The translations under genes were made by a program, and so were the position numbers. 64,000 nucleotides of DNA from the sequence record OM953433; one strand, 5' to 3'. Source of the stretch: Shigella phage Henu11. Positions 3,088 through 36,683 of this stretch are shown piece after piece (the first letter of the stretch is position 1; each line of letters opens with the position of its first letter). The notes beneath the pieces were generated by a model. That model was not told the origin of the DNA, made no database searches, and worked only from the letters and a program-made list of their open reading frames with translations.

Positions 3088-5783
3088 TGTACCTCATACC
3101 AGCTCTTACCAACTTTACCAGTACCTGTTACCAAGGTTTCTTTCCTTAGTCCAAGGTTTTTAGAAGCTTGTCCGTACATCCAGTCAGTAATAGCCTTAAC
3201 TTCTTGAGTCATACTTTCTGGACATTCCCAACTATTTTCGTCGTGGTATGCCAGAAGAAGTCTAGCTCCAATAGCTGGCTTACGCCCATTTAGTTTCATC
3301 AACCCTTCATCATATGCTCTACGACATGCAAGGTTAATTGCTTCATTCTGGACTTGACTTTCTGAACCCATCAAAAGGTAATTTAACAGCTTGTGTGGAG
3401 ACTTACACCACAGCCAAGCTCCAGCAACCTTCACAAAACCACCTTTAGCTATCGCAGCAGTTTTACCAAACACCTCTTCAAGTGCTTTCTTAGTTGCTTT
3501 GAAATCAGCTTCCAAGTTGTCTAACAGTTTCTTAATCTTCGGCAAGCGCACAAAGTAAGTCTGCTTAGTCAATGCACCTTCCTGAGTAGTTGCTGCTTTA
3601 ATTGTTTTAGCAAACTTCTCATCACCTGCACCGAACAACAGGGCATAGATACCATTCTTAGCTTTCTTACGTCCCTTGCTAATCTCATGAAGAAGATTCT
3701 CATCCTGAGTAGCACGACAAGTCAAGATATCTTGCTCATCATTAAGGCTGAAGTAGATACTGTTCAGAGTGTGAGCATCAGTCCCTGAGTAAACTACGTA
3801 CAAATCGTTTTCAGAGTCATAACGCAGATACTTGTCAATCTCTGGATTCAGATACTGGTCAAAGTGTTTGCAGTAGTATCTTCCATCCTCTTGACGAACA
3901 AACTCAATCTCTTCTTTACCCTCTGTTACCGCTTTGGTGAAGTCTTTATCACCCATGAAGTTACAGAGTAGTACAAGCTGTGCAGAGTTCATATCAACAG
4001 ATACTACGTTGGTTCCCTCTTCACAAATCCACACTGCCCTCATTGGCTCACCGTAAACAGCAGCACCAGAAGGTACGTTTACAATACCATACTGAGTCAT
4101 ACGTCCAGTAGAAGTACCAAACACCATTGCACCTGCACTCAAACGACCATCTGGACGAATCTGGTTCAGCCAACCTTTCTCATCATCCTTTGAGTTCTCA
4201 ATAGTCCTGCGTCGGTGCATCAAAGTATAGTACTTCGCAATCTTCTGTCCAAGCTCACCTTCGATTGTATCATAAGAAGACTCTGTAAGCTTTGGTGAAG
4301 TCCTAATCAAGCAAGGCTCAAGCACATCTGTGTACTTCTTAACAGACCAGTTATGCTCGATGTAATAGACACCTTCATGCTCAATATAGTTCAACCCACA
4401 ACGCTCAACCATCTCATCCCACTTAGGATGTTTGCGAATCATCTTTTTGTTGTCTTTGAATCTGCAAACCTTAACCGGACGACCATCAGAATCTTTTTTG
4501 TAGTTCCAATCATCAGGAATCCAACCAACAGATTTTAAGTAATCCTTCACCACAGCTACCTGAGTCATTCGTGAAACTTCAAACTCAATTGGTGTGAATG
4601 GTGCATCAATCAAACCAGTGTAGCGACTTGACTCCAACTCGAAGTGATTTACAACATGCACATTATAGTACTTCACAATCTTCACAGTCTTAACTGGTTT
4701 CCAATCTTTACACTTCTTCCCAATCTTCTCATTCAGTTCATTACAAACTGCACGAGCATCTTTCATTGCTACGAAACCTTCAGGGTACTCTTCTTTGGTA
4801 ACCGTATTAGTTGGTGTGTAGCAGTTACGTTTCTCAACGTTAAAAATCTTTGTAGTTGGCTTTCCATATGGCTTGATAGGGTATTGCTTCAACTCACCTT
4901 CACGCATCTGTTCACGATACTTTGTCTTAGGGTACTTGGTAATCCTTTTTAAGCCGTCAACGTGACCAAATGTATCCACATACTCATTCCAAGACTTAGC
5001 AAACTCTTCACCTGTGACCTTACCTTTTGTCTTGATAGTTGGTGGCAGGTGTGGCTCAACCTCAGCAGCTAACTCATTAGTTAACTTGTCAAGTTCTTTA
5101 ACATGGAACTGCATAAGTTCTACATCAGCTTTCCAACCGTTGATAGCTTGCTGGCTCATCCAGAAAGATGTTTCTTTAGCTCGCATATAGGTTTCATAAG
5201 TGTCAACACCACACTTCTTAAGCTTAAGGTACTCATTATCAAGAGCACGTTTAGTTTTGGCGTTAATCTTAATATCTTCTACAACACGAGTAAGAATCTC
5301 TGCATTCCATACACCCCACTCTTCAATCTCTGGTTTACGAACACCAACACGAGCACCCCATGCAGCCAAACCATGAGCACCTTTGTAACCTTTTGGTGTA
5401 GGTCTATCCATCCACTGTACGCGAGATTGGATAAGTGAATCCTGAAAGAAGTCACTCCAAGGCTTACACTTAGGATTCTCAAAGTTCCACAGGTCAGGTG
5501 CAATGTGATTAAACACCCACCAGTCATAACCAAGACCATTGTGGATACAAAGACGTTTAGCTTTCAGTGCAAACTCAACACCTTCACGCAGACCACCTTT
5601 GATGTATTTTGTATACTTGTGACCAAGAATAGGCTCATCAGTGAAAACCCACACAGCAGGTTCATCACTGTCATCTTTATAGTCTGCGAAAGCCATTACG
5701 TGTGCTTTTGTAAACTCAAGGAGCAACCCATCAGTTTCTGTATCACCAACCAAATGTAATTTTTCGAAATCTACATTGTCCAT
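3084..5783 (-). CDS. DNA polymerase, family A (T7 gp5-like) with 3'-5' exonuclease domain
   Basis: 899 aa; exo motifs DTETDGL and HNGLGYDW; pol motifs GAHGLAAWGARVG, LFGAGDEKFA, LLAYHDENSWECP resembling T7 DNA polymerase. Confidence 0.9.
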   Translation of the reverse strand: MDNVDFEKLHLVGDTETDGLLLEFTKAHVMAFADYKDDSDEPAVWVFTDEPILGHKYTKYIKGGLREGVEFALKAKRLCIHNGLGYDWWVFNHIAPDLWNFENPKCKPWSDFFQDSLIQSRVQWMDRPTPKGYKGAHGLAAWGARVGVRKPEIEEWGVWNAEILTRVVEDIKINAKTKRALDNEYLKLKKCGVDTYETYMRAKETSFWMSQQAINGWKADVELMQFHVKELDKLTNELAAEVEPHLPPTIKTKGKVTGEEFAKSWNEYVDTFGHVDGLKRITKYPKTKYREQMREGELKQYPIKPYGKPTTKIFNVEKRNCYTPTNTVTKEEYPEGFVAMKDARAVCNELNEKIGKKCKDWKPVKTVKIVKYYNVHVVNHFELESSRYTGLIDAPFTPIEFEVSRMTQVAVVKDYLKSVGWIPDDWNYKKDSDGRPVKVCRFKDNKKMIRKHPKWDEMVERCGLNYIEHEGVYYIEHNWSVKKYTDVLEPCLIRTSPKLTESSYDTIEGELGQKIAKYYTLMHRRRTIENSKDDEKGWLNQIRPDGRLSAGAMVFGTSTGRMTQYGIVNVPSGAAVYGEPMRAVWICEEGTNVVSVDMNSAQLVLLCNFMGDKDFTKAVTEGKEEIEFVRQEDGRYYCKHFDQYLNPEIDKYLRYDSENDLYVVYSGTDAHTLNSIYFSLNDEQDILTCRATQDENLLHEISKGRKKAKNGIYALLFGAGDEKFAKTIKAATTQEGALTKQTYFVRLPKIKKLLDNLEADFKATKKALEEVFGKTAAIAKGGFVKVAGAWLWCKSPHKLLNYLLMGSESQVQNEAINLACRRAYDEGLMKLNGRKPAIGARLLLAYHDENSWECPESMTQEVKAITDWMYGQASKNLGLRKETLVTGTGKVGKSWYEVH

Positions 5784-7276: not shown

Positions 7277-7304
7277 AAGCCTCCTTAATTGGGGGCTTTT
7301 TATT
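7277..7304 (+). terminator. rho-independent terminator
   Basis: hairpin AGCCTCC...GGGGGCT followed by TTTTTATT. Confidence 0.5.
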
Positions 7305-7318
7305 ATGGAGTGACTTAT

Positions 7319-8059
7319 ATGAAAAGTGTTATTGCATTTACTGGAAAAGCTCGTTCTGGAAAGGATACGTCTTGCAGCATTGTAAAAAATCTATTGAATG
7401 AGGTTGGATACACTGTTAAAGTGTTTGCGTTTGCCGATAACTTAAAAGCAACTGCTGGGTTTATCTTTGACTTAAACTGGCACGACCTATATGGTGATAC
7501 GAAAGAAACGCCTAAAAAGTTTAGCTTAGATTTTGACAACCTTAACTCTCGTGTGGCATGGGCTTTCAATATAAACATGAAAAGCAAGGGTATACAAGAT
7601 GATGCAAAACTTTGTGGGGAAATCACAGACAGACTTATCAAAGAGTTAAAGAAAGTTGGTAAGCCAACATTGCTTACAAAGCTTGGTTTGAAAAATGAAT
7701 ATATGATTTCCTCAAGACAAATACAGCAAGTCTGGGGTAGTGAGGTTATCCGTAAAATTCTTGGAGAGCGTTTCTGGATTACAGACTTAGCAGAACGTAT
7801 TGAAAAATTCTATGGTGATTGTGTTAAGAAAAGTCACATAGGTATTGCACTGATATGTGATTTAAGGTTTGATATTGAAGCTGAGTTCCTTCAAAGCTAT
7901 GATAGCCAGATAATTGAGATTACAAGAAAAGATGCTATTCAGGTGGCTTCCCATAGCTCTGAACGTGGTATCTCCACTAACTTCTCCCGTGATATTATCC
8001 AGAATAACGGAACGATGGAAGAGTTAGAGAGTAAACTTAAAACCATTATCAATCTATAA
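7319..8059 (+). CDS. deoxynucleoside monophosphate kinase (T4 gp1-like)
   Basis: P-loop FTGKARSGKDT near N-terminus and C-terminal GTMEELESKLK resembling T4 dNMP kinase; start placed at ATG with GGAG RBS. Confidence 0.75.
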   Translation: MKSVIAFTGKARSGKDTSCSIVKNLLNEVGYTVKVFAFADNLKATAGFIFDLNWHDLYGDTKETPKKFSLDFDNLNSRVAWAFNINMKSKGIQDDAKLCGEITDRLIKELKKVGKPTLLTKLGLKNEYMISSRQIQQVWGSEVIRKILGERFWITDLAERIEKFYGDCVKKSHIGIALICDLRFDIEAEFLQSYDSQIIEITRKDAIQVASHSSERGISTNFSRDIIQNNGTMEELESKLKTIINL

Positions 8060-13664: not shown

Positions 13665-13881
13665 AATGTTTAATAAAATCAAAAATGACCATGTTTCTAA
13701 AATCCAGAGCGGCGTAGCAGCACTGAAGGAGACTATCAATAAAGCTAAGTCAGCTACAGAAGCTGAGATGGATGCTCTGGAATCACAAATTCAACATCTG
13801 TTAAGCAAACGTGTTGAACTCAAAGAACGAATGGACTATATTGAGTCTCAACAAAAGTTGTTTGAAGATAAGGAGGCTTAA
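13651..13881 (+). CDS. hypothetical coiled-coil protein
   Basis: 76 aa. Confidence 0.4.
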   Translation: MREFKMFNKIKNDHVSKIQSGVAALKETINKAKSATEAEMDALESQIQHLLSKRVELKERMDYIESQQKLFEDKEA

Positions 13882-14636
13882 TGTTTAATTCCAGAGAATC
13901 CGTAAGAGATTGGAATCTACGTTGTGGCAATAATCCAAAAGAGCCATACAGCACAGAGTATTGGGAATCACTGAAAAGTCAATCCCTGTGTATGCTTGAA
14001 GAAGCTAGAGAGTTAGTCGCAGCAGTAGAAGCCAAAGACCCTGTTGAGACCCTTGATGCTCAAGCTGATTTGCAGTATGTACTTGACGGTTTAATTTTCC
14101 TGACACAGCATGACCATGATGGTGCTATTAAGGCTGTTTGTGAAAACAACAACCTCAAATACACAGACGACTATCAAGAAGCTGTACAGCGAATGTTTGA
14201 TATTGAAAAACGTACTGGTGATGAATGTTACCTGCGTCAATCAATTATTGAAGGTAAAGAGTGGTTTGCAATTATTCGCAAGTCTGATGGTAAGATTATG
14301 AAACAGTCTAATCTTCCAAAAGTTCAACTTGAAAGTTTTATTGCAGAAGTTGACGCAAAAGAATTATTTGTGGTAACATCTGACACATGCGTTATCTGCC
14401 AAGGACTGATTGGAAGTCTTGGTAGTCTTGGCATTAAAAACTTTTCTAAAGTTGAACCAATCTCTTCAAAAGCAGATAAAGATTTCTGCCGTGAGAATGG
14501 ATTATGGCTTGCGGATATTGTGTACTATGATGGTGAGAAGTTCCATGTAACCTCATATCCGAAATTGAATTATGATGCAATCAACCTCAAGCAGTGGTTG
14601 AAAGGAGTCGGTTATAATGGATTCACAGAACATTAA
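13881..14636 (+). CDS. hypothetical protein, possible MazG-like nucleotide pyrophosphohydrolase domain
   Basis: 251 aa; N-terminal EEARELVAAVEAKDPVETLDAQADLQYVL resembles MazG-type EExxE...D motif (weak). Confidence 0.4.
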   Translation: MFNSRESVRDWNLRCGNNPKEPYSTEYWESLKSQSLCMLEEARELVAAVEAKDPVETLDAQADLQYVLDGLIFLTQHDHDGAIKAVCENNNLKYTDDYQEAVQRMFDIEKRTGDECYLRQSIIEGKEWFAIIRKSDGKIMKQSNLPKVQLESFIAEVDAKELFVVTSDTCVICQGLIGSLGSLGIKNFSKVEPISSKADKDFCRENGLWLADIVYYDGEKFHVTSYPKLNYDAINLKQWLKGVGYNGFTEH

Positions 14637-23452: not shown

Positions 23453-23764
23453 ATGGAAAAGGTTTATAACACTCGTAAAATTCAGATTTCTATCCTGTGC
23501 CAGTTTATGGCTGATAAACACAACTCCCACTATTGTGGTACAGGTTTCCTTACTCTAGGTGGTGGCTACATTAGCTTTAAAGAAGCTGTGAAGATGTACA
23601 ATGAGCACCCTGAAGATGACAAAGAGTTGAAACAACTGAAGCTTACTTATGACAAGAAGCGTAAGAAAATTGTATGCTTGAATAACCTTATCAAGCCAAC
23701 TGAAAACGTTTATGATGCAATTGGTGAGGAAGGTTTCTTAAAAGTCTTGAAAATAGCTCAGTAA
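23453..23764 (+). CDS. hypothetical protein
   Basis: 103 aa. Confidence 0.45.
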   Translation: MEKVYNTRKIQISILCQFMADKHNSHYCGTGFLTLGGGYISFKEAVKMYNEHPEDDKELKQLKLTYDKKRKKIVCLNNLIKPTENVYDAIGEEGFLKVLKIAQ

Positions 23765-23777
23765 ACGTATATGATTA

Positions 23778-23806
23778 GGGAACTGTAAAAGGTTCCCTTT
23801 TTATTT
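23778..23806 (+). terminator. rho-independent terminator
   Basis: GGGAAC...GTTCCC hairpin plus T-tract. Confidence 0.6.
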
Positions 23807-24332: not shown

Positions 24333-24603
24333 AGAACAATGGGATATTATACCACTAGTGAGTGATGGTGGAAATGGTTGTGAGATGTATATGATACGTG
24401 GTCACGTTCCAGATGCACTTGCTATTGAGATGGTAAACCACTATACTGACGGCTCTTACAAAGATTTTGGTGAGCCAAATGTAAAACGCCAATGGGTTAA
24501 ACCTGTACCAGATAGCACAGGAAATTGCAGTGTTCTATACCACACTGTTGACCCAACAAAATGTAAAACAGCTATGGCAGTAACAAACGTAACTTTTGAC
24601 TGA
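24325..24603 (+). CDS. hypothetical protein
   Basis: ORF 24298 trimmed to ATG overlapping upstream stop. Confidence 0.35.
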   Translation: MAREQWDIIPLVSDGGNGCEMYMIRGHVPDALAIEMVNHYTDGSYKDFGEPNVKRQWVKPVPDSTGNCSVLYHTVDPTKCKTAMAVTNVTFD

Positions 24604-24617
24604 GAGAAATATTATGA
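24579..24617 (+). repeat. duplicated leader, copy 1
   Basis: about 39 bp AGTAACAAACGTAACTTTTGACTGAGAGAAATATTATGA identical to 25545-25583. Confidence 0.8.
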
Positions 24618-25063
24618 TTTTTTGTAATTTACAAAAACATGTAATAGAAATTTTGTATAAAGAGTTTGGAACAGAGGAAACATTTGATTCTAATGAGGCT
24701 ATTGACGTACTTCGAAAGAAAAGCCTCTACATTAGAAGCCAGTCAATTAATAATGCTCGTGGTTACTTGACAGCATTACGACAAACTGGTGTTCTAATGA
24801 CTGTAGGTCAGATAAAAAGTAAAGGTAGGCTAAGCATTAACCAGCTAAATAAATCCTTCATGGAAAAGCATATCCAGCTATCACCATTACTGGATGAATC
24901 ACATGAAGAACCTAAAAATAAAGATGAGAACAAAATTGTTGACACAGAACCTGACGTAAGGTACTTTATTGAAAGTGCGATGTTTAATACCTTAGAAGAG
25001 GCTGTTGAGCACTGCAAAAAACACATCATTAAGATTAAACGTGCAAAGATTATTTGGGAATAA
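24614..25063 (+). CDS. hypothetical protein, paralog A
   Basis: 150 aa from ATG in duplicated leader; paralogous to 25093-25542 (shared EFGT..FDSNEA, ARGYLTALR, HIIKIKR.KIIWE). Confidence 0.5.
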   Translation: MIFCNLQKHVIEILYKEFGTEETFDSNEAIDVLRKKSLYIRSQSINNARGYLTALRQTGVLMTVGQIKSKGRLSINQLNKSFMEKHIQLSPLLDESHEEPKNKDENKIVDTEPDVRYFIESAMFNTLEEAVEHCKKHIIKIKRAKIIWE

Positions 25064-25092
25064 TTTTATACACTATCTAAAGAGACAAAGTT

Positions 25093-25542
25093 ATGATTAG
25101 CTCATTTTATGTAACGCTTGTTGAGATACTACACGAAAAATTCGGGACTGATAAGGAATTTGATTCCAATGAAGCGGTGAAAGCTCTAAGAAGCGGTTGT
25201 GATTATCTTAAGAAAATGCCGATAGCAAACTCAAGGTATTATTTATCAGCGTTGCGTAAAGTTGGGGTACTCGTGACTGTCAAGCATGGTAGTAAAAATG
25301 GTGGAGTTCTTTATATCAACCAGTTAAGCAAACCATTTATGGAAAATGAGCCACGACTAGCAAGACTGGTGACTGGTGTACAATACCAAATAAAAACTAC
25401 AGAAATTCCAGAAGTACAAGAGCAAAACCCAAATGTTAAGTACTTTGTTGGTGAAATCATGTTTGATACAATTAATGATGCTGTTGCATACTGTAAAAGC
25501 CATATCATTAAAATCAAAAGAAAGAAGATTATTTGGGAATAA
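25093..25542 (+). CDS. hypothetical protein, paralog B
   Basis: 149 aa; tandem paralog of 24614-25063. Confidence 0.5.
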   Translation: MISSFYVTLVEILHEKFGTDKEFDSNEAVKALRSGCDYLKKMPIANSRYYLSALRKVGVLVTVKHGSKNGGVLYINQLSKPFMENEPRLARLVTGVQYQIKTTEIPEVQEQNPNVKYFVGEIMFDTINDAVAYCKSHIIKIKRKKIIWE

Positions 25543-25544
25543 TA

Positions 25545-25583
25545 AGTAACAAACGTAACTTTTGACTGAGAGAAATATTATGA
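25545..25583 (+). repeat. duplicated leader, copy 2
   Basis: identical to 24579-24617; supplies RBS and ATG of Prs-like gene. Confidence 0.8.
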
Positions 25584-26461
25584 AAACTACTATTCGAGTT
25601 CTACTTAATTCAAATTCCAAAGGTTCTCATCAAGAGACCTTCAACATTATCCAGTTCCCTTCTGGGGAGATTGGTGGTAACTTCTCAGAAGACTTAGTAG
25701 ACTTTGCTGAACATGCTGCTGGTAAGATTGAAAACGTAGTCTTCACAGTACAAGGTTATGACAAAGACACACTCTTTGCATTAGCTATGGCTAAAGAAGC
25801 AATTGACCGTTTGATTCCTCAGAAAGCAACTCTGAAAACTGTTGTCTTTGGATTCTTACCAAATGCTCGCTATGACCGTCACATGTTTAAAGGTGATGCA
25901 GCAGCACTTAAAGTCTTTGCAAATCTTGTAAATGCTATGGAGTTCGATGCAGTATGTGCTCTGGATACTCACAGTAATGTTGCAGAGAATTTGTTTAAGA
26001 GCTTCTACAACCTCCCTCAAAAAGAGGCAGCAGTCCACTTTGCAAGTGACCCACGCATTGATTACTTAGTGGCTCCAGATGCAGGTGCAGCTAAGAAGAC
26101 TGAAGAGGCTGCTAAAGAGGTTGATAAACCTTATATTACAATGGCTAAGGTACGAAACCTGAAAACTGGTGAAATCACTGGTATGCGAATCCTTGATGAT
26201 GTAGACTTGACAGGTAAGACTGTCATGATTCTGGATGATATCTGTGACGGTGGTCGAACCTTTATCGAGGCTGCAAAGTATCTTCGTGAAGCTGGAGCAG
26301 AACGTGTGGAACTGTATGTCACTCATGGGATTTTCTCTAAAGGTGTTGAAAATCTCCTTGACAATGGTATCGACCATATCTACACTACAAACTCACTAGG
26401 GGATGAAAAAGACCGTGGTCTTTCCCACTTCTCACAAGTGACCGTAGCAAATATTGAATAA
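25580..26461 (+). CDS. ribose-phosphate pyrophosphokinase (Prs)-like protein; candidate ADPR-PP synthetase
   Basis: about 293 aa from ATG 25580; Prs-like ALDTHS and PRPP-binding-loop-like VMILDDICDGGRT; TTG-initiated track ORF starts 25562. Confidence 0.8.
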   Translation: MKTTIRVLLNSNSKGSHQETFNIIQFPSGEIGGNFSEDLVDFAEHAAGKIENVVFTVQGYDKDTLFALAMAKEAIDRLIPQKATLKTVVFGFLPNARYDRHMFKGDAAALKVFANLVNAMEFDAVCALDTHSNVAENLFKSFYNLPQKEAAVHFASDPRIDYLVAPDAGAAKKTEEAAKEVDKPYITMAKVRNLKTGEITGMRILDDVDLTGKTVMILDDICDGGRTFIEAAKYLREAGAERVELYVTHGIFSKGVENLLDNGIDHIYTTNSLGDEKDRGLSHFSQVTVANIE

Positions 26462-26469
26462 CAACTTTA

Positions 26470-26485
26470 GGGGCTGAAAAGCCCC
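26470..26485 (+). terminator. hairpin, weak terminator
   Basis: GGGGCT-GAAA-AGCCCC between Prs-like and NAMPT-like genes, poor T-tract. Confidence 0.3.
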
Positions 26486-26505
26486 ACTTTGAGAGAGATA
26501 AAAAG

Positions 26506-28332
26506 ATGACTAAATCACTTTATGCAGTACCAGCAGCACTTAATGCAGATGCCTACAAATCTGGCCATTTCTACCAGTATCCAGATGCTACACAGTATCT
26601 TATGCTGAACTTAACACCTCGTGGAGATAAATGGTTTAACTCTCCGTTAGAGATTGATGGTGTTGTAGCCTTTGGTATTCAGCGTTTTGTAAAAGACTAT
26701 CTGGTAGACCACTGGAATGCAACGTTCTTTGAACGTGATAAGAAAGAAGCCATTGACGAAATCTTGGAAATCATGAATGGTGTCCTTGGTGCAGATGCTA
26801 TTGGTCGTCAACATTGGGAAGAACTTCATGACTTGGGTTACCTACCTGTTGAAGTCTACTCTGTAGAGGAAGGTACAATTGTCCCTATGCGTGTCCCGAT
26901 GATTGTCTTTAAAAACACTGTAGAGGGATTCCATTGGGTAGCTGGTTACCTTGAAGATGCTTTCTCTGCTGAAATCTGGAAGGCTTGTACGATTGCAACT
27001 ATTGCACTGCATTACAAACGTATCTGTAAACAATGGGCTGACAAGACCTGTGACAATGACTTCCATTTACCTTGGCAGTGTCATGATTTTGCAATGCGTG
27101 GTATGTCTGGCTTCACAGATGATGCTTTTAATGCTGTAGGTCACTTGACCAGCTTTAAAGGTACTGACAGCTTCCCTGCTGTGTATACTGCTAAACGTGC
27201 TTATGGTCAGTTTATGACAATCAGTGATATTGGCAACTCTGTACCAGCAACTGAACACTCTGTGATGTGTGCAAACATTTCATGGAATATGAAAGACCTG
27301 ACAGAAGAGGATATTCACTCACAGTACATTATGCAGTCTGAAGGATTACTAGATGCCAAACGTTGGCGTGGTGAGGTAGAAACTTTCCATCGCCTTCTGA
27401 CAGAAGTTTACCCAACTGGTATTGCAAGTGCCGTATCAGATACTTACAACTTCTGGCGTACTGTTACACAGATTCTGCCAGAGCTACGTAATGTAATTCT
27501 GAATCGTGATGGTAAGTTGGTAATTCGTCCAGACTCTGGAGACCCTGTTCACATTGTTACAGGTTACAAAGCCGTTGAATGGGAAACTGCTAAGTCAATG
27601 TTCTACAAGCACATGAAAGGTCTTGCACCAGATAATACCCATCTGCATGACACAATCTTGAATTGTGAAATGTCTGATATTGGTTTTGGGTTCTCTGCTT
27701 GGTTAATCTCTGAAGGTTATGAGATGGTTGTTGAAAATGAAGATTTTGATTATATTGACACAATCAACCTGATTACCGCTCAGAAAACTGGACAGTTTAC
27801 TGTGAAGCGTATGTTAACAGCAGAAATTGATGGAGCTATACACACGCTGTATAACATCTTTGGTGGCACTGTTAACTCCAAAGGGTACAAAGTACTGGAT
27901 GAGCACATTGGGCTAATCTACGGTGATTCTATCACTCTGGAAAGGGCTAATGAGATTCTGTCACGTCTTGCTGATAAAGGTTTTGCAAGTTCTAACGTAG
28001 TGTTTGGTGTAGGCTCATACACCTATCAGTACCTGACTCGTGACACCTTTGCATTTGCTGTTAAAGCAACTCTTGCACAGATGGATGGTCAAGAAATTAT
28101 GCTGGCTAAAGACCCTAAAACTGACAGCGGTCTTAAGAAGTCTGCTTTTGGTGGAGTTGTCCCTATGTGGGATGGTGACAAGCTGGTAGCTGTAGATGGT
28201 TTTGGCTTTGCAGAGTTTGAAGGTGCAATTGACAACTGTCATAGTGCTTTGAAACTGGTATTTAGTAACTCGCAACCTTATGGTTACGTTAACCTGCGTG
28301 ATGTTCGAAATACTATTGACAAGCAACTTTAA
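26506..28332 (+). CDS. nadV: nicotinamide phosphoribosyltransferase (NAMPT)-family protein
   Basis: 608 aa; NADAYKSGHFYQYP, CHDFAMRGMSGF, HLTSFKGTDS, VPATEHSVM, VIRPDSGDP match NAMPT signature regions. Confidence 0.85.
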   Translation: MTKSLYAVPAALNADAYKSGHFYQYPDATQYLMLNLTPRGDKWFNSPLEIDGVVAFGIQRFVKDYLVDHWNATFFERDKKEAIDEILEIMNGVLGADAIGRQHWEELHDLGYLPVEVYSVEEGTIVPMRVPMIVFKNTVEGFHWVAGYLEDAFSAEIWKACTIATIALHYKRICKQWADKTCDNDFHLPWQCHDFAMRGMSGFTDDAFNAVGHLTSFKGTDSFPAVYTAKRAYGQFMTISDIGNSVPATEHSVMCANISWNMKDLTEEDIHSQYIMQSEGLLDAKRWRGEVETFHRLLTEVYPTGIASAVSDTYNFWRTVTQILPELRNVILNRDGKLVIRPDSGDPVHIVTGYKAVEWETAKSMFYKHMKGLAPDNTHLHDTILNCEMSDIGFGFSAWLISEGYEMVVENEDFDYIDTINLITAQKTGQFTVKRMLTAEIDGAIHTLYNIFGGTVNSKGYKVLDEHIGLIYGDSITLERANEILSRLADKGFASSNVVFGVGSYTYQYLTRDTFAFAVKATLAQMDGQEIMLAKDPKTDSGLKKSAFGGVVPMWDGDKLVAVDGFGFAEFEGAIDNCHSALKLVFSNSQPYGYVNLRDVRNTIDKQL

Positions 28333-28346
28333 AACAGTATGATAAG

Positions 28347-28369
28347 AGGCTCCTACGGGAGCCTTTTTA
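28347..28369 (+). terminator. rho-independent terminator
   Basis: AGGCTCC-TACG-GGAGCCT plus TTTTT. Confidence 0.7.
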
Positions 28370-28373
28370 ATTT

Positions 28374-35694: not shown

Positions 35695-35887
35695 TTTCTG
35701 CACTAAGTGTTCTGTTGAGATGTTTGGAAAAGATACAGGAGACTTAAAAGGTCTCTTTACAAAGGCAGAATTTAAAGCTGGTTCAGCAATGCCAGTAATC
35801 TGTGAAGGTTGCGGTGCTTTATGGGTAGACCATGAAGGTAACCGAGTTAAACCATCTGAAGATAACGAACGTTGGGAGCATTACTAA
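35687..35887 (+). CDS. small zinc-ribbon protein
   Basis: 66 aa; CTKC...CEGC cysteine pairs. Confidence 0.4.
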   Translation: MADFCTKCSVEMFGKDTGDLKGLFTKAEFKAGSAMPVICEGCGALWVDHEGNRVKPSEDNERWEHY

Positions 35888-35888
35888 T

Positions 35889-36683
35889 ATGGGTATCGTA
35901 AAAATTATTAAAGGTGATATCTTTAAAGATTTTGATGGTAAGAAGTTTGATATCATTGGTCACGGTTGTAACTGCATGAACTTGATGCCAGCAGGTATCG
36001 CAGCAACAATTGCTAAACGCTACCCAAAAGCTTATGAAACTGACGCTGAAGTTTATGCTACAGTAGGTGGTGAAAATCATAACCCTAAGCATCTAATGCT
36101 TGGTAACATCTCTGTAGCACGTTTTAAGCAGGGTCGAATTGCTAACCTTTACACTCAGGTTATCACTGGCAAAGATGCACGATACAACGCCTTAGAAGCA
36201 GCTTTACAGCGTCTTAACAACTACTGTAAAGTTAATCAACTTAAGAAAGTTGGGCTTCCGATGATTGGTGCAGGGATTGGTGGTCTTGATAGCATGGCTG
36301 TACTGTCCATTATCAACCAGACTATGAAGGATGTTGACGTTTATATGTATGTCTATGAAGATAAGATGTACAGTCAGTTGACTAGTCCTGTTACTGGTTG
36401 GGAGAACTTCAGTGAGCCTCAATACTTTGATGGTGTTGCTGTGGTAGGCAAGGATAAAGTTACCCTCAAGGTGAAGCGTAATGGCAAGGTACACACCAGT
36501 TACCCTCCGGTTGAGAAGTACAATCGAAGTAACGCTCAAGTTACCCACCCGTTACAAGGCCACCACCACAGAGCGGTAACGTTTGGCGATGATGCAAGTG
36601 TATATATCAATGCGACTACAGAAGAGTTTGCAGAAGATTATATCACACATGAAAACGTAAACTATGTTGAAGCACGTAACTAA
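35889..36683 (+). CDS. macro-domain (ADP-ribose binding/processing) protein
   Basis: about 264 aa from ATG after upstream stop; IIKGDIF, FDIIGHGCNCMNLMPAGIA and LPMIGAGIGGLD resemble macro-domain glycine-rich motifs; C-terminal extension unknown. Confidence 0.6.
   Translation: MGIVKIIKGDIFKDFDGKKFDIIGHGCNCMNLMPAGIAATIAKRYPKAYETDAEVYATVGGENHNPKHLMLGNISVARFKQGRIANLYTQVITGKDARYNALEAALQRLNNYCKVNQLKKVGLPMIGAGIGGLDSMAVLSIINQTMKDVDVYMYVYEDKMYSQLTSPVTGWENFSEPQYFDGVAVVGKDKVTLKVKRNGKVHTSYPPVEKYNRSNAQVTHPLQGHHHRAVTFGDDASVYINATTEEFAEDYITHENVNYVEARN

Follow-up and report, generated by a model that had tools for sequence, protein, structure and literature searches.

Adjacent Prs-like and NAMPT-like genes of Shigella phage Henu11 form a probable NARP1 operon for rebuilding NAD+ from ADP-ribose

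A 64,000-nucleotide stretch of DNA from Shigella phage Henu11 (record OM953433), hereafter the window, carries two adjacent genes, one for a Prs-family protein and one for a NAMPT-family protein, that very probably constitute a NARP1 operon, with the first gene encoding Adps and the second Namat. This assignment rests on orthology to a characterized phage operon and on signature residues. The window directly shows two genes laid out as an operon, with a hairpin between them and a strong terminator behind them, together with intact catalytic residues in both proteins and an adenine clamp in Namat. The two reactions and the antidefense phenotype are extended to Henu11 from experiments with the phage Bas63 and with SpbetaL1 enzymes, and the pathway would run as follows. 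During infection, a defense system of the SIR2, TIR, or SEFIR type would cleave NAD+ to ADP-ribose and nicotinamide; Adps, a diverged ribose-phosphate diphosphokinase, would transfer pyrophosphate from ATP onto the terminal ribose C1'' of ADP-ribose to give ADP-ribose pyrophosphate (ADPR-PP); and Namat, a diverged NAMPT, would let nicotinamide displace the pyrophosphate, producing NAD+ directly, with neither nicotinamide mononucleotide (NMN) nor an NMNAT as intermediary. The phage would thereby resist NAD-depleting defenses and not those that kill by other means. A pair labeled in GenBank as ribose-phosphate pyrophosphokinase and nicotinamide phosphoribosyltransferase can thus be recognized as a probable counterdefense module. 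The system is already known and the lineage of Henu11 has already been catalogued as NARP1, so that the scientific gain is small.

NARP1 was discovered by deletion of genes 79 and 80 of Bas63 (Osterman et al., bioRxiv 10.1101/2024.02.11.579819). In that study, plating of the mutant on cells with SIR2-HerA fell about 20-fold; NAD+ stayed at higher levels with the wild type; neither host pncC nor nadR was needed for the effect; and ADPR-PP was detected only when wild-type Bas63 met the defense system. Formation of ADPR-PP from ADP-ribose and ATP, and of NAD+ from ADPR-PP (favored over PRPP) and nicotinamide, was demonstrated in vitro with the enzymes of Bacillus phage SpbetaL1, and deletion of NARP1 from Bacillus phage FADO sensitized it to DSR2 (bioRxiv 10.1101/2024.02.11.579819).

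To relate the Henu11 pair to these systems, the genome of Bas63 (MZ501086; Escherichia phage JohannRWettstein, a BASEL phage and Felixounavirus) was used as the reference. The window itself is assigned by its sequence to a lytic Ounavirinae myophage of the Felix O1-like/Mooglevirus group. Over the NARP1 region, its DNA was 100% identical to that of Shigella phage Henu12, 94 to 97% identical to those of Citrobacter phages Mordin and Michonne and Shigella phages Sf13 to Sf19 (Mooglevirus group), and about 76% identical to those of about 250 Felixounavirus genomes. Bas63 gene 79 encodes 293 amino acids (aa) and gene 80 encodes 593 aa, with a 45-nucleotide spacer between them and rIIA/rIIB downstream. 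Henu11 Adps aligned with Bas63_0079 over 293 of 293 residues without gaps (81% identity), and Namat was 75% identical to Bas63_0080 over its full length. Ten open reading frames (ORFs) flanking the Henu11 pair were collinear with Bas63 genes 74 to 84. On the strength of the full-length identity, the collinear neighbors, and the retained spacer hairpin and terminator, the Henu11 genes are orthologs of Bas63 genes 79 and 80, a relationship that goes beyond mere family membership. The two phages, both Ounavirinae, also share the spacing of about 45 bp, the Lys-Trp pair and type of signature motif in the Namat clamp, and an 87-aa insertion in Namat. They differ in that Henu11 Namat is 15 aa longer, because a second, variable insertion is longer; in that a 966-bp two-gene cassette stands at the Adps start in Henu11; and in that Bas63_0081 has no counterpart there.

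The published survey of NARP1 bears on this lineage directly. Its Table S1 lists the Prs homologs of Mordin, Michonne, Moogle, Sf13, and FelixO1 with the entry "Namat within 10 genes: Yes," its Table S2 lists the NAMPT homologs of the same five phages as "Adps-associated," and its Adps tree was built with Bas63 Adps as the query (bioRxiv 10.1101/2024.02.11.579819). The tabulated sequences are essentially those of the Henu11 pair.

The family assignment of the two proteins, read from profile matches far above chance, is unambiguous. Adps matched Pribosyltran and Pribosyl_synth (Pfam), phrog_619 (E, 4e-99), and the Prs subfamily model TIGR01251 (131 bits; cutoff, 113). This broad subfamily model was the only NCBIfam Prs model that it passed; no Prs equivalog cutoff was reached, the best score being 107.6 bits against a cutoff of 296. 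Namat matched NAPRTase and NAMPT_N, NF006629 (465 bits; cutoff, 405), and phrog_448 (E, 2e-199). An earlier sequence-only reading of the window had recognized both genes by their motifs, and these were found where expected: ALDTHS at aa 127 to 132 and the ribose-5-phosphate loop (Table 1) in the first protein, and YQYP (aa 23 to 26), HDFAMRG (aa 193 to 199), FKGTDS (aa 217 to 222), and IRPDSGDP (aa 340 to 347) in the 608-aa second protein. That reading also gave a gap of 45 bp; the adjacency holds, and the exact figure does not, since the spacer is 44 nucleotides and 45 is the difference between coordinates. Both genes lie on the plus strand. A TTG at 25562, 18 nucleotides upstream of the ATG, was considered as the start of Adps and rejected because all relatives use the ATG (MKT...) and the added codons form part of a duplicated 39-bp leader.

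TABLE 1 Predicted features of the putative NARP1 operon and of other loci in the Henu11 window
Feature	Position	Strand	Details
adps (ADP-ribose diphosphokinase, Prs family)	25580..26461	+	293 aa from ATG at 25580
Adps ribose-5-phosphate/PRPP loop	26222..26260	+	VMILDDICDGGRT; aa 215-227
Hairpin in adps-namat spacer	26470..26485	+	GGGGC-TGAAAA-GCCCC; dG, -12.8 kcal/mol; z, -3.6
namat (nicotinamide ADP-ribose transferase, NAMPT family)	26506..28332	+	608 aa
Namat selectivity-clamp loop (SCL)	26614..26637	+	TPRGDKWF; G40-D41-K42-W43
Second, length-variable Namat insertion	27277..27372	+	aa 258-289, directly after catalytic His251
Lineage-specific insertion subdomain in Namat	27571..27831	+	87 aa; aa 356-442
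Namat selectivity-clamp helix (SCH) signature	28012..28044	+	GSYTYQYLTRD; aa 503-513
Intrinsic terminator-like hairpin and T-run	28344..28373	+	12 nt past namat stop; 10-bp stem, then TTTTTAATTT
Two-gene cassette	24579-25583 region		966 bp; inserted exactly at Adps start codon
Cassette ORFs	24614-25063 and 25093-25542		Paralogs, 46% identical; phrog_29478; no known domain
Perfect direct repeat flanking cassette	24579-24617 and 25545-25583		39 bp; duplicates Adps leader/ribosome-binding site
Macro-domain gene (Poa1p/Adpp-like)	35889-36683	+	Pfam PF01661, 29.4 bits (cutoff, 22); ORF opens at 35832

The hairpin in the spacer was matched in folding energy by none of 200 shuffled sequences, has no T-run, and recurs in Bas63. 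The terminator-like hairpin behind namat (dG, -18.2 kcal/mol; z, -4.3) is identical in sequence in Bas63. Each end of the putative transcription unit (23747-23798 and 28316-28367) has a sigma-70-like promoter match (10 to 11 of 12 positions) with a stable hairpin and T-run immediately behind it, the two hairpins having dG values of -14.4 and -18.2 kcal/mol and z values of about -4. Sigma-70 promoter-like matches were not enriched in the region (18, versus 16.3 in shuffled sequences).

The selectivity clamp of Namat binds the adenine of ADPR-PP, as seen in crystal structures of the SpbetaL1 enzyme (PMC12774641). Its loop, the SCL, is variable, with either an Arg at position 3 or a Lys or Tyr followed by a stacking residue; a Lys in third place leaves the stacking on adenine to the residue after it, with Bas63 as the cited example (PMC12774641). 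The K-W pair of Henu11 is identical to that of Bas63 (TPRSDKWF), and the Henu11 loop is of the Lys type, with W43 as the predicted adenine-stacking residue. The second part of the clamp, the SCH, is marked by a signature motif (PMC12774641) that Henu11 Namat carries and that was absent from the NMN-forming enzymes compared, namely, Haemophilus ducreyi NadV (GAQTYQRNTRD) and Xanthomonas (Xcc) Nampt (GGALLQKVDRD). The core residues D15, Y17, F195, R198, D221, H251, R341, and D343 were all present; F195, R198, D221, R341, and D343 correspond to SpbetaL1 F189, R192, D215, R306, and D308, and H251 corresponds to its catalytic His. The best sequence matches in the PDB were the SpbetaL1 Namat structures 9w5w and 9w5x (E, 2e-125), followed by H. 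ducreyi NadV as the next-closest solved structure (E, 5e-100) and human NAMPT (E, about 1e-40). An AlphaFold2 model of Henu11 Namat (mean predicted local distance difference test score, 91.1) likewise had Namat structures as its top Foldseek matches, and the predicted fold superposed on 9W5W/9W5X with a TM score of 0.95 on the target. The SpbetaL1 and FADO systems thus resemble that of Henu11 in two-gene architecture, catalytic residues, and the clamp signature GS[FY]TYQY.TRD. Identity to the FADO proteins was 47% for Namat and 31% for Adps, and the Bacillus Namats, at about 490 to 498 aa, differ in having neither of the Henu11 insertions and in an SCL that uses Arg40 directly instead of Lys-Trp.

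Adps could not be placed by pairwise comparison. BLAST gave 73 bits against FADO Adps (31% identity) and 67 bits against E. coli Prs (28% identity), and this approach was abandoned. Therefore, an alignment and a neighbor-joining tree with 200 bootstraps were built from 19 Namat-linked proteins (Henu11, Bas63, FADO, and other phage and enterobacterial sequences) and four canonical Prs proteins, the latter being E. coli Prs and three sequences marked as not Namat linked in the published Table S1. All 200 bootstrap trees separated canonical Prs from the entire Namat-linked set, with which Henu11 Adps grouped; an earlier tree with one outgroup had been uninformative. The alignment, which the sequence-only reading had proposed as a check, also covered the ribose-5-phosphate-contacting residues. 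The catalytic K190 is conserved (K197 in Bacillus subtilis Prs and K162 in SpbetaL1 Adps, whose K162A mutant has been described [bioRxiv 10.1101/2024.02.11.579819]), and the ATP and ribose ligands R97, D99, R100, H131, R192, D219, and D220 do not vary across the alignment, whereas the ribose-5-phosphate loop has diverged from that of canonical Prs. This loop reads DD[IL]CDGGRTF in Namat-linked proteins versus DDM[IV]DTGGTL in canonical Prs; other variants in the Namat-linked set were DDLCDAGGTF and DDLSSYGGTF, and the Thr that follows the third Asp has been substituted. Consistent differences ran through the Namat-linked set at three other sites as well: the DxH motif is DxHS versus DLHA, the PDxG motif is PDAGAxKK versus PDxGGVxRA, and the flexible catalytic loop is KxR[ND]xxTG[END][IL] versus KRR...N. 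In place of the canonical DLHA and DTGGT, Henu11 Adps has DTHS and DGGRT. These loop changes may open the 5-phosphate pocket to accommodate the ADP moiety and would in that way be linked to specificity for ADP-ribose. A search of the literature and of structures found no solved or published Adps structure and no published specificity determinants.

The two genes might instead form an ordinary salvage pair, as the sequence-only reading had allowed, in which Prs would make phosphoribosyl pyrophosphate (PRPP) from ribose-5-phosphate, an enzyme of the NadV type would make NMN, and host NadR/PncC would complete NAD+. The GenBank annotation and the Pfam, NCBIfam, and PHROG names all say Prs and NAMPT, and Namat can turn PRPP into NMN in vitro, about half as fast as human NAMPT does (PMC12774641). 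However, the Bas63 orthologs work without host pncC or nadR and generate ADPR-PP in vivo (bioRxiv 10.1101/2024.02.11.579819), the clamp residues that favor ADPR-PP are present in Henu11 Namat, and Adps both misses all of the Prs equivalog cutoffs (108 versus 296 bits) and separates from canonical Prs. We therefore consider salvage of this kind highly improbable as the function of the pair. The sequence-only reading had put NARP1 forward while holding that sequence could not distinguish it from salvage; the proposal gained support from Bas63 orthology, the Namat clamp, the grouping of Adps, and the published tables that list the lineage, and the reservation did not survive, since sequence does decide once comparison data are included. 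Bas63 orthology, the clamp motif, and the loops of the Adps clade thus offer a way to tell NARP1 from ordinary NAD salvage without experiments.

Several points weigh against the assignment of the pair as NARP1. The enzymology comes from the SpbetaL1 homologs alone, and the identity to that side of the family, taken from FADO as a proxy, is 47% for Namat and 31% for Adps. Because Namat enzymes still convert PRPP to NMN in vitro as a side reaction (PMC12774641), some ordinary salvage is possible. The Ounavirinae Namat carries two insertions, at aa 258 to 289 and aa 356 to 442, that may bear on its function. In pairwise comparison, Adps is equally distant from the Bacillus-phage Adps and from E. 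coli Prs, and the tree that separates them was made by a simple distance method with only four class I bacterial Prs proteins. The best PDB matches of Adps were archaeal class III Prs.

NARP2, exemplified by NadV-NatV of KVP40, resembles NARP1 in using a NAMPT-family enzyme and in restoring NAD+ against depletion defenses. It differs in using PRPP and in needing an NMNAT, which is bifunctional, with Nampt; Henu11 has an Adps, an ADPR-PP clamp, and no NMNAT in the window. No NMNAT had been noticed in the sequence-only reading either, and every search agreed. None of the NMNAT signatures (H/T)xGH, ISSTxxR, and Nudix box was found in the six frames of the window, no cytidylyltransferase or NMNAT Pfam domain was found in the 30 longer unassigned ORFs scanned besides the pair (32 in all), and no NMNAT is annotated in the relatives Henu12 and Bas63. 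NARP2 is therefore ruled out within the window, which covers about 64 kb of a genome type of about 88 kb and to which the absence of NMNAT applies.

Related pairs are also found on chromosomes of Enterobacteriaceae, for example, in Klebsiella michiganensis, where, as in Henu11, the genes for a Prs-like protein (289 aa) and a NAMPT-like protein (496 aa) are adjacent. The NAMPT-like protein has the motif GSFTYQYNTRD and is 44 to 45% identical to Henu11 Namat but lacks the 87-aa insertion. The K. michiganensis genes (segment 3211-6491), the closest nonphage relatives, are transcribed divergently from a regulator of the Nudix/NrtR type. NrtR responds to ADP-ribose, which would fit a bacterial operon for ADP-ribose recycling. 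Bacterial NARP1 is also known from Paenibacillus foliorum (PMC12774641).

The chemistry of NARP1 could also serve a chiefly metabolic role in Henu11, that is, general NAD+ upkeep, such as recycling of ADP-ribose from host or phage NAD consumers, with counterdefense as a secondary effect. The pair belongs to the conserved Ounavirinae core, being present full length in about 250 records. The chromosomal versions adjoin the NAD regulator NrtR, which suggests that a housekeeping role in recycling is possible. With Bas63, however, ADPR-PP was not seen when no defense system was present, and the deletion phenotype depended on defense (bioRxiv 10.1101/2024.02.11.579819), and a gene-essentiality screen of Bas63 gave mixed essentiality for enzymes of nucleotide and nicotinamide metabolism. 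We thus regard a chiefly metabolic role as very unlikely. With NARP1 taken as a counterdefense system, Felix O1 and Mooglevirus candidates for phage therapy would be predicted to tolerate NAD-depleting defenses based on SIR2, TIR, or SEFIR.

No Macro domain was found in the seven upstream and three downstream neighbors of the pair, and no RyR domain (PF02026) was found in the neighbors of the operon. Since the adjacent genes have neither domain, the operon is the two-gene NARP1 core and not the published NARP1-AP or RyDEP-extended form. Beyond what has been published, leads came from three features of this phage, namely, a distal Adpp-like Macro gene, the insertion subdomain of Namat, and a hotspot for accessory genes where Adps begins.

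NARP1-AP (Adps-Adpp-Namat) of Vibrio phage Gary (bioRxiv 10.64898/2026.01.28.702374) has the Adps and Namat core in common with Henu11. The window has a single Macro gene, which lies outside the operon, roughly a dozen genes and 7.5 kb downstream of namat, whereas in NARP1-AP the Macro gene is by definition within two genes of the pair. The best PDB relative of its product was yeast Poa1p, an ADPR-1''-phosphate phosphatase (E, 2e-4). The protein was 30% identical to Gary Adpp over the whole of Adpp (E, 3e-16), kept the HxCNC and GxGxxGG motifs, was 64% identical to Bas63_0095, and, in a further difference from NARP1-AP, has an extra C-terminal region of about 110 aa. Its family is very widespread among phages. 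The aRES/NARP1-AP survey looked no more than two genes to each side of a NARP1 operon and tabulated no enterobacterial phages (bioRxiv 10.64898/2026.01.28.702374); a distal Macro gene would therefore be missed by it. On these grounds, it is conceivable, if rather unlikely, that Ounavirinae such as Henu11 and Bas63 run a split NARP1, in which the unlinked Macro phosphatase would turn RES-made ADPR-1''-phosphate into ADP-ribose for Adps and so confer the capability of NARP1-AP, and in which the 87-aa Namat subdomain might have a role particular to this lineage, for example, as a docking site for Adps through which the labile ADPR-PP is passed on. The SpbetaL1 proteins do not bind each other. A dedicated role for the Macro protein is countered by the occurrence of its family (phrog_335/T4 Tk.4) in 2,752 phage records and by its equal similarity to T4-like Tk.4 proteins of other phages. 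The 87-aa subdomain of the Ounavirinae Namat is folded and has no structural relatives. The second insertion is helical in the model and spans 32 aa in Henu11; at the same site, Bas63 has 17 aa and FADO about 3.

The cassette at the Adps start is present in BSwM KMM2 and Mordin and absent from Henu12 and Bas63; its gene family was found in 15 records, all from Ounavirinae and always as two copies. At the same junction, Salmonella phage vB_SAg-RPN213 (Felixounavirus) has four small ORFs (segment positions 3998-5724). Because the cassette varies in presence among phages and RPN213 has four ORFs there, the site where the gp78-like gene meets Adps is an accessory-gene hotspot. In several Felixounaviruses, the match to the NARP1 pair is broken into two pieces and overlies an annotated HNH endonuclease. 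The window is a mosaic: Henu12 shares the pair and the DNA downstream of it with 100% identity but lacks the cassette DNA just upstream (window positions 25000-25555 compared with Henu12 segment 12916-13209), for which the match is with the Citrobacter phages BSwM KMM2 and Mordin. Elsewhere in the window, two further genes of nucleotide metabolism, ORFs at 13881-14636 and 7289-8059, have PRA-PH/MazG-like pyrophosphohydrolase (PF01503) and deoxynucleotide monophosphate kinase (PF21448) domains, respectively; kinases of the latter kind have been reported to trigger the NAD-depleting Kongming system (PMC12774641).

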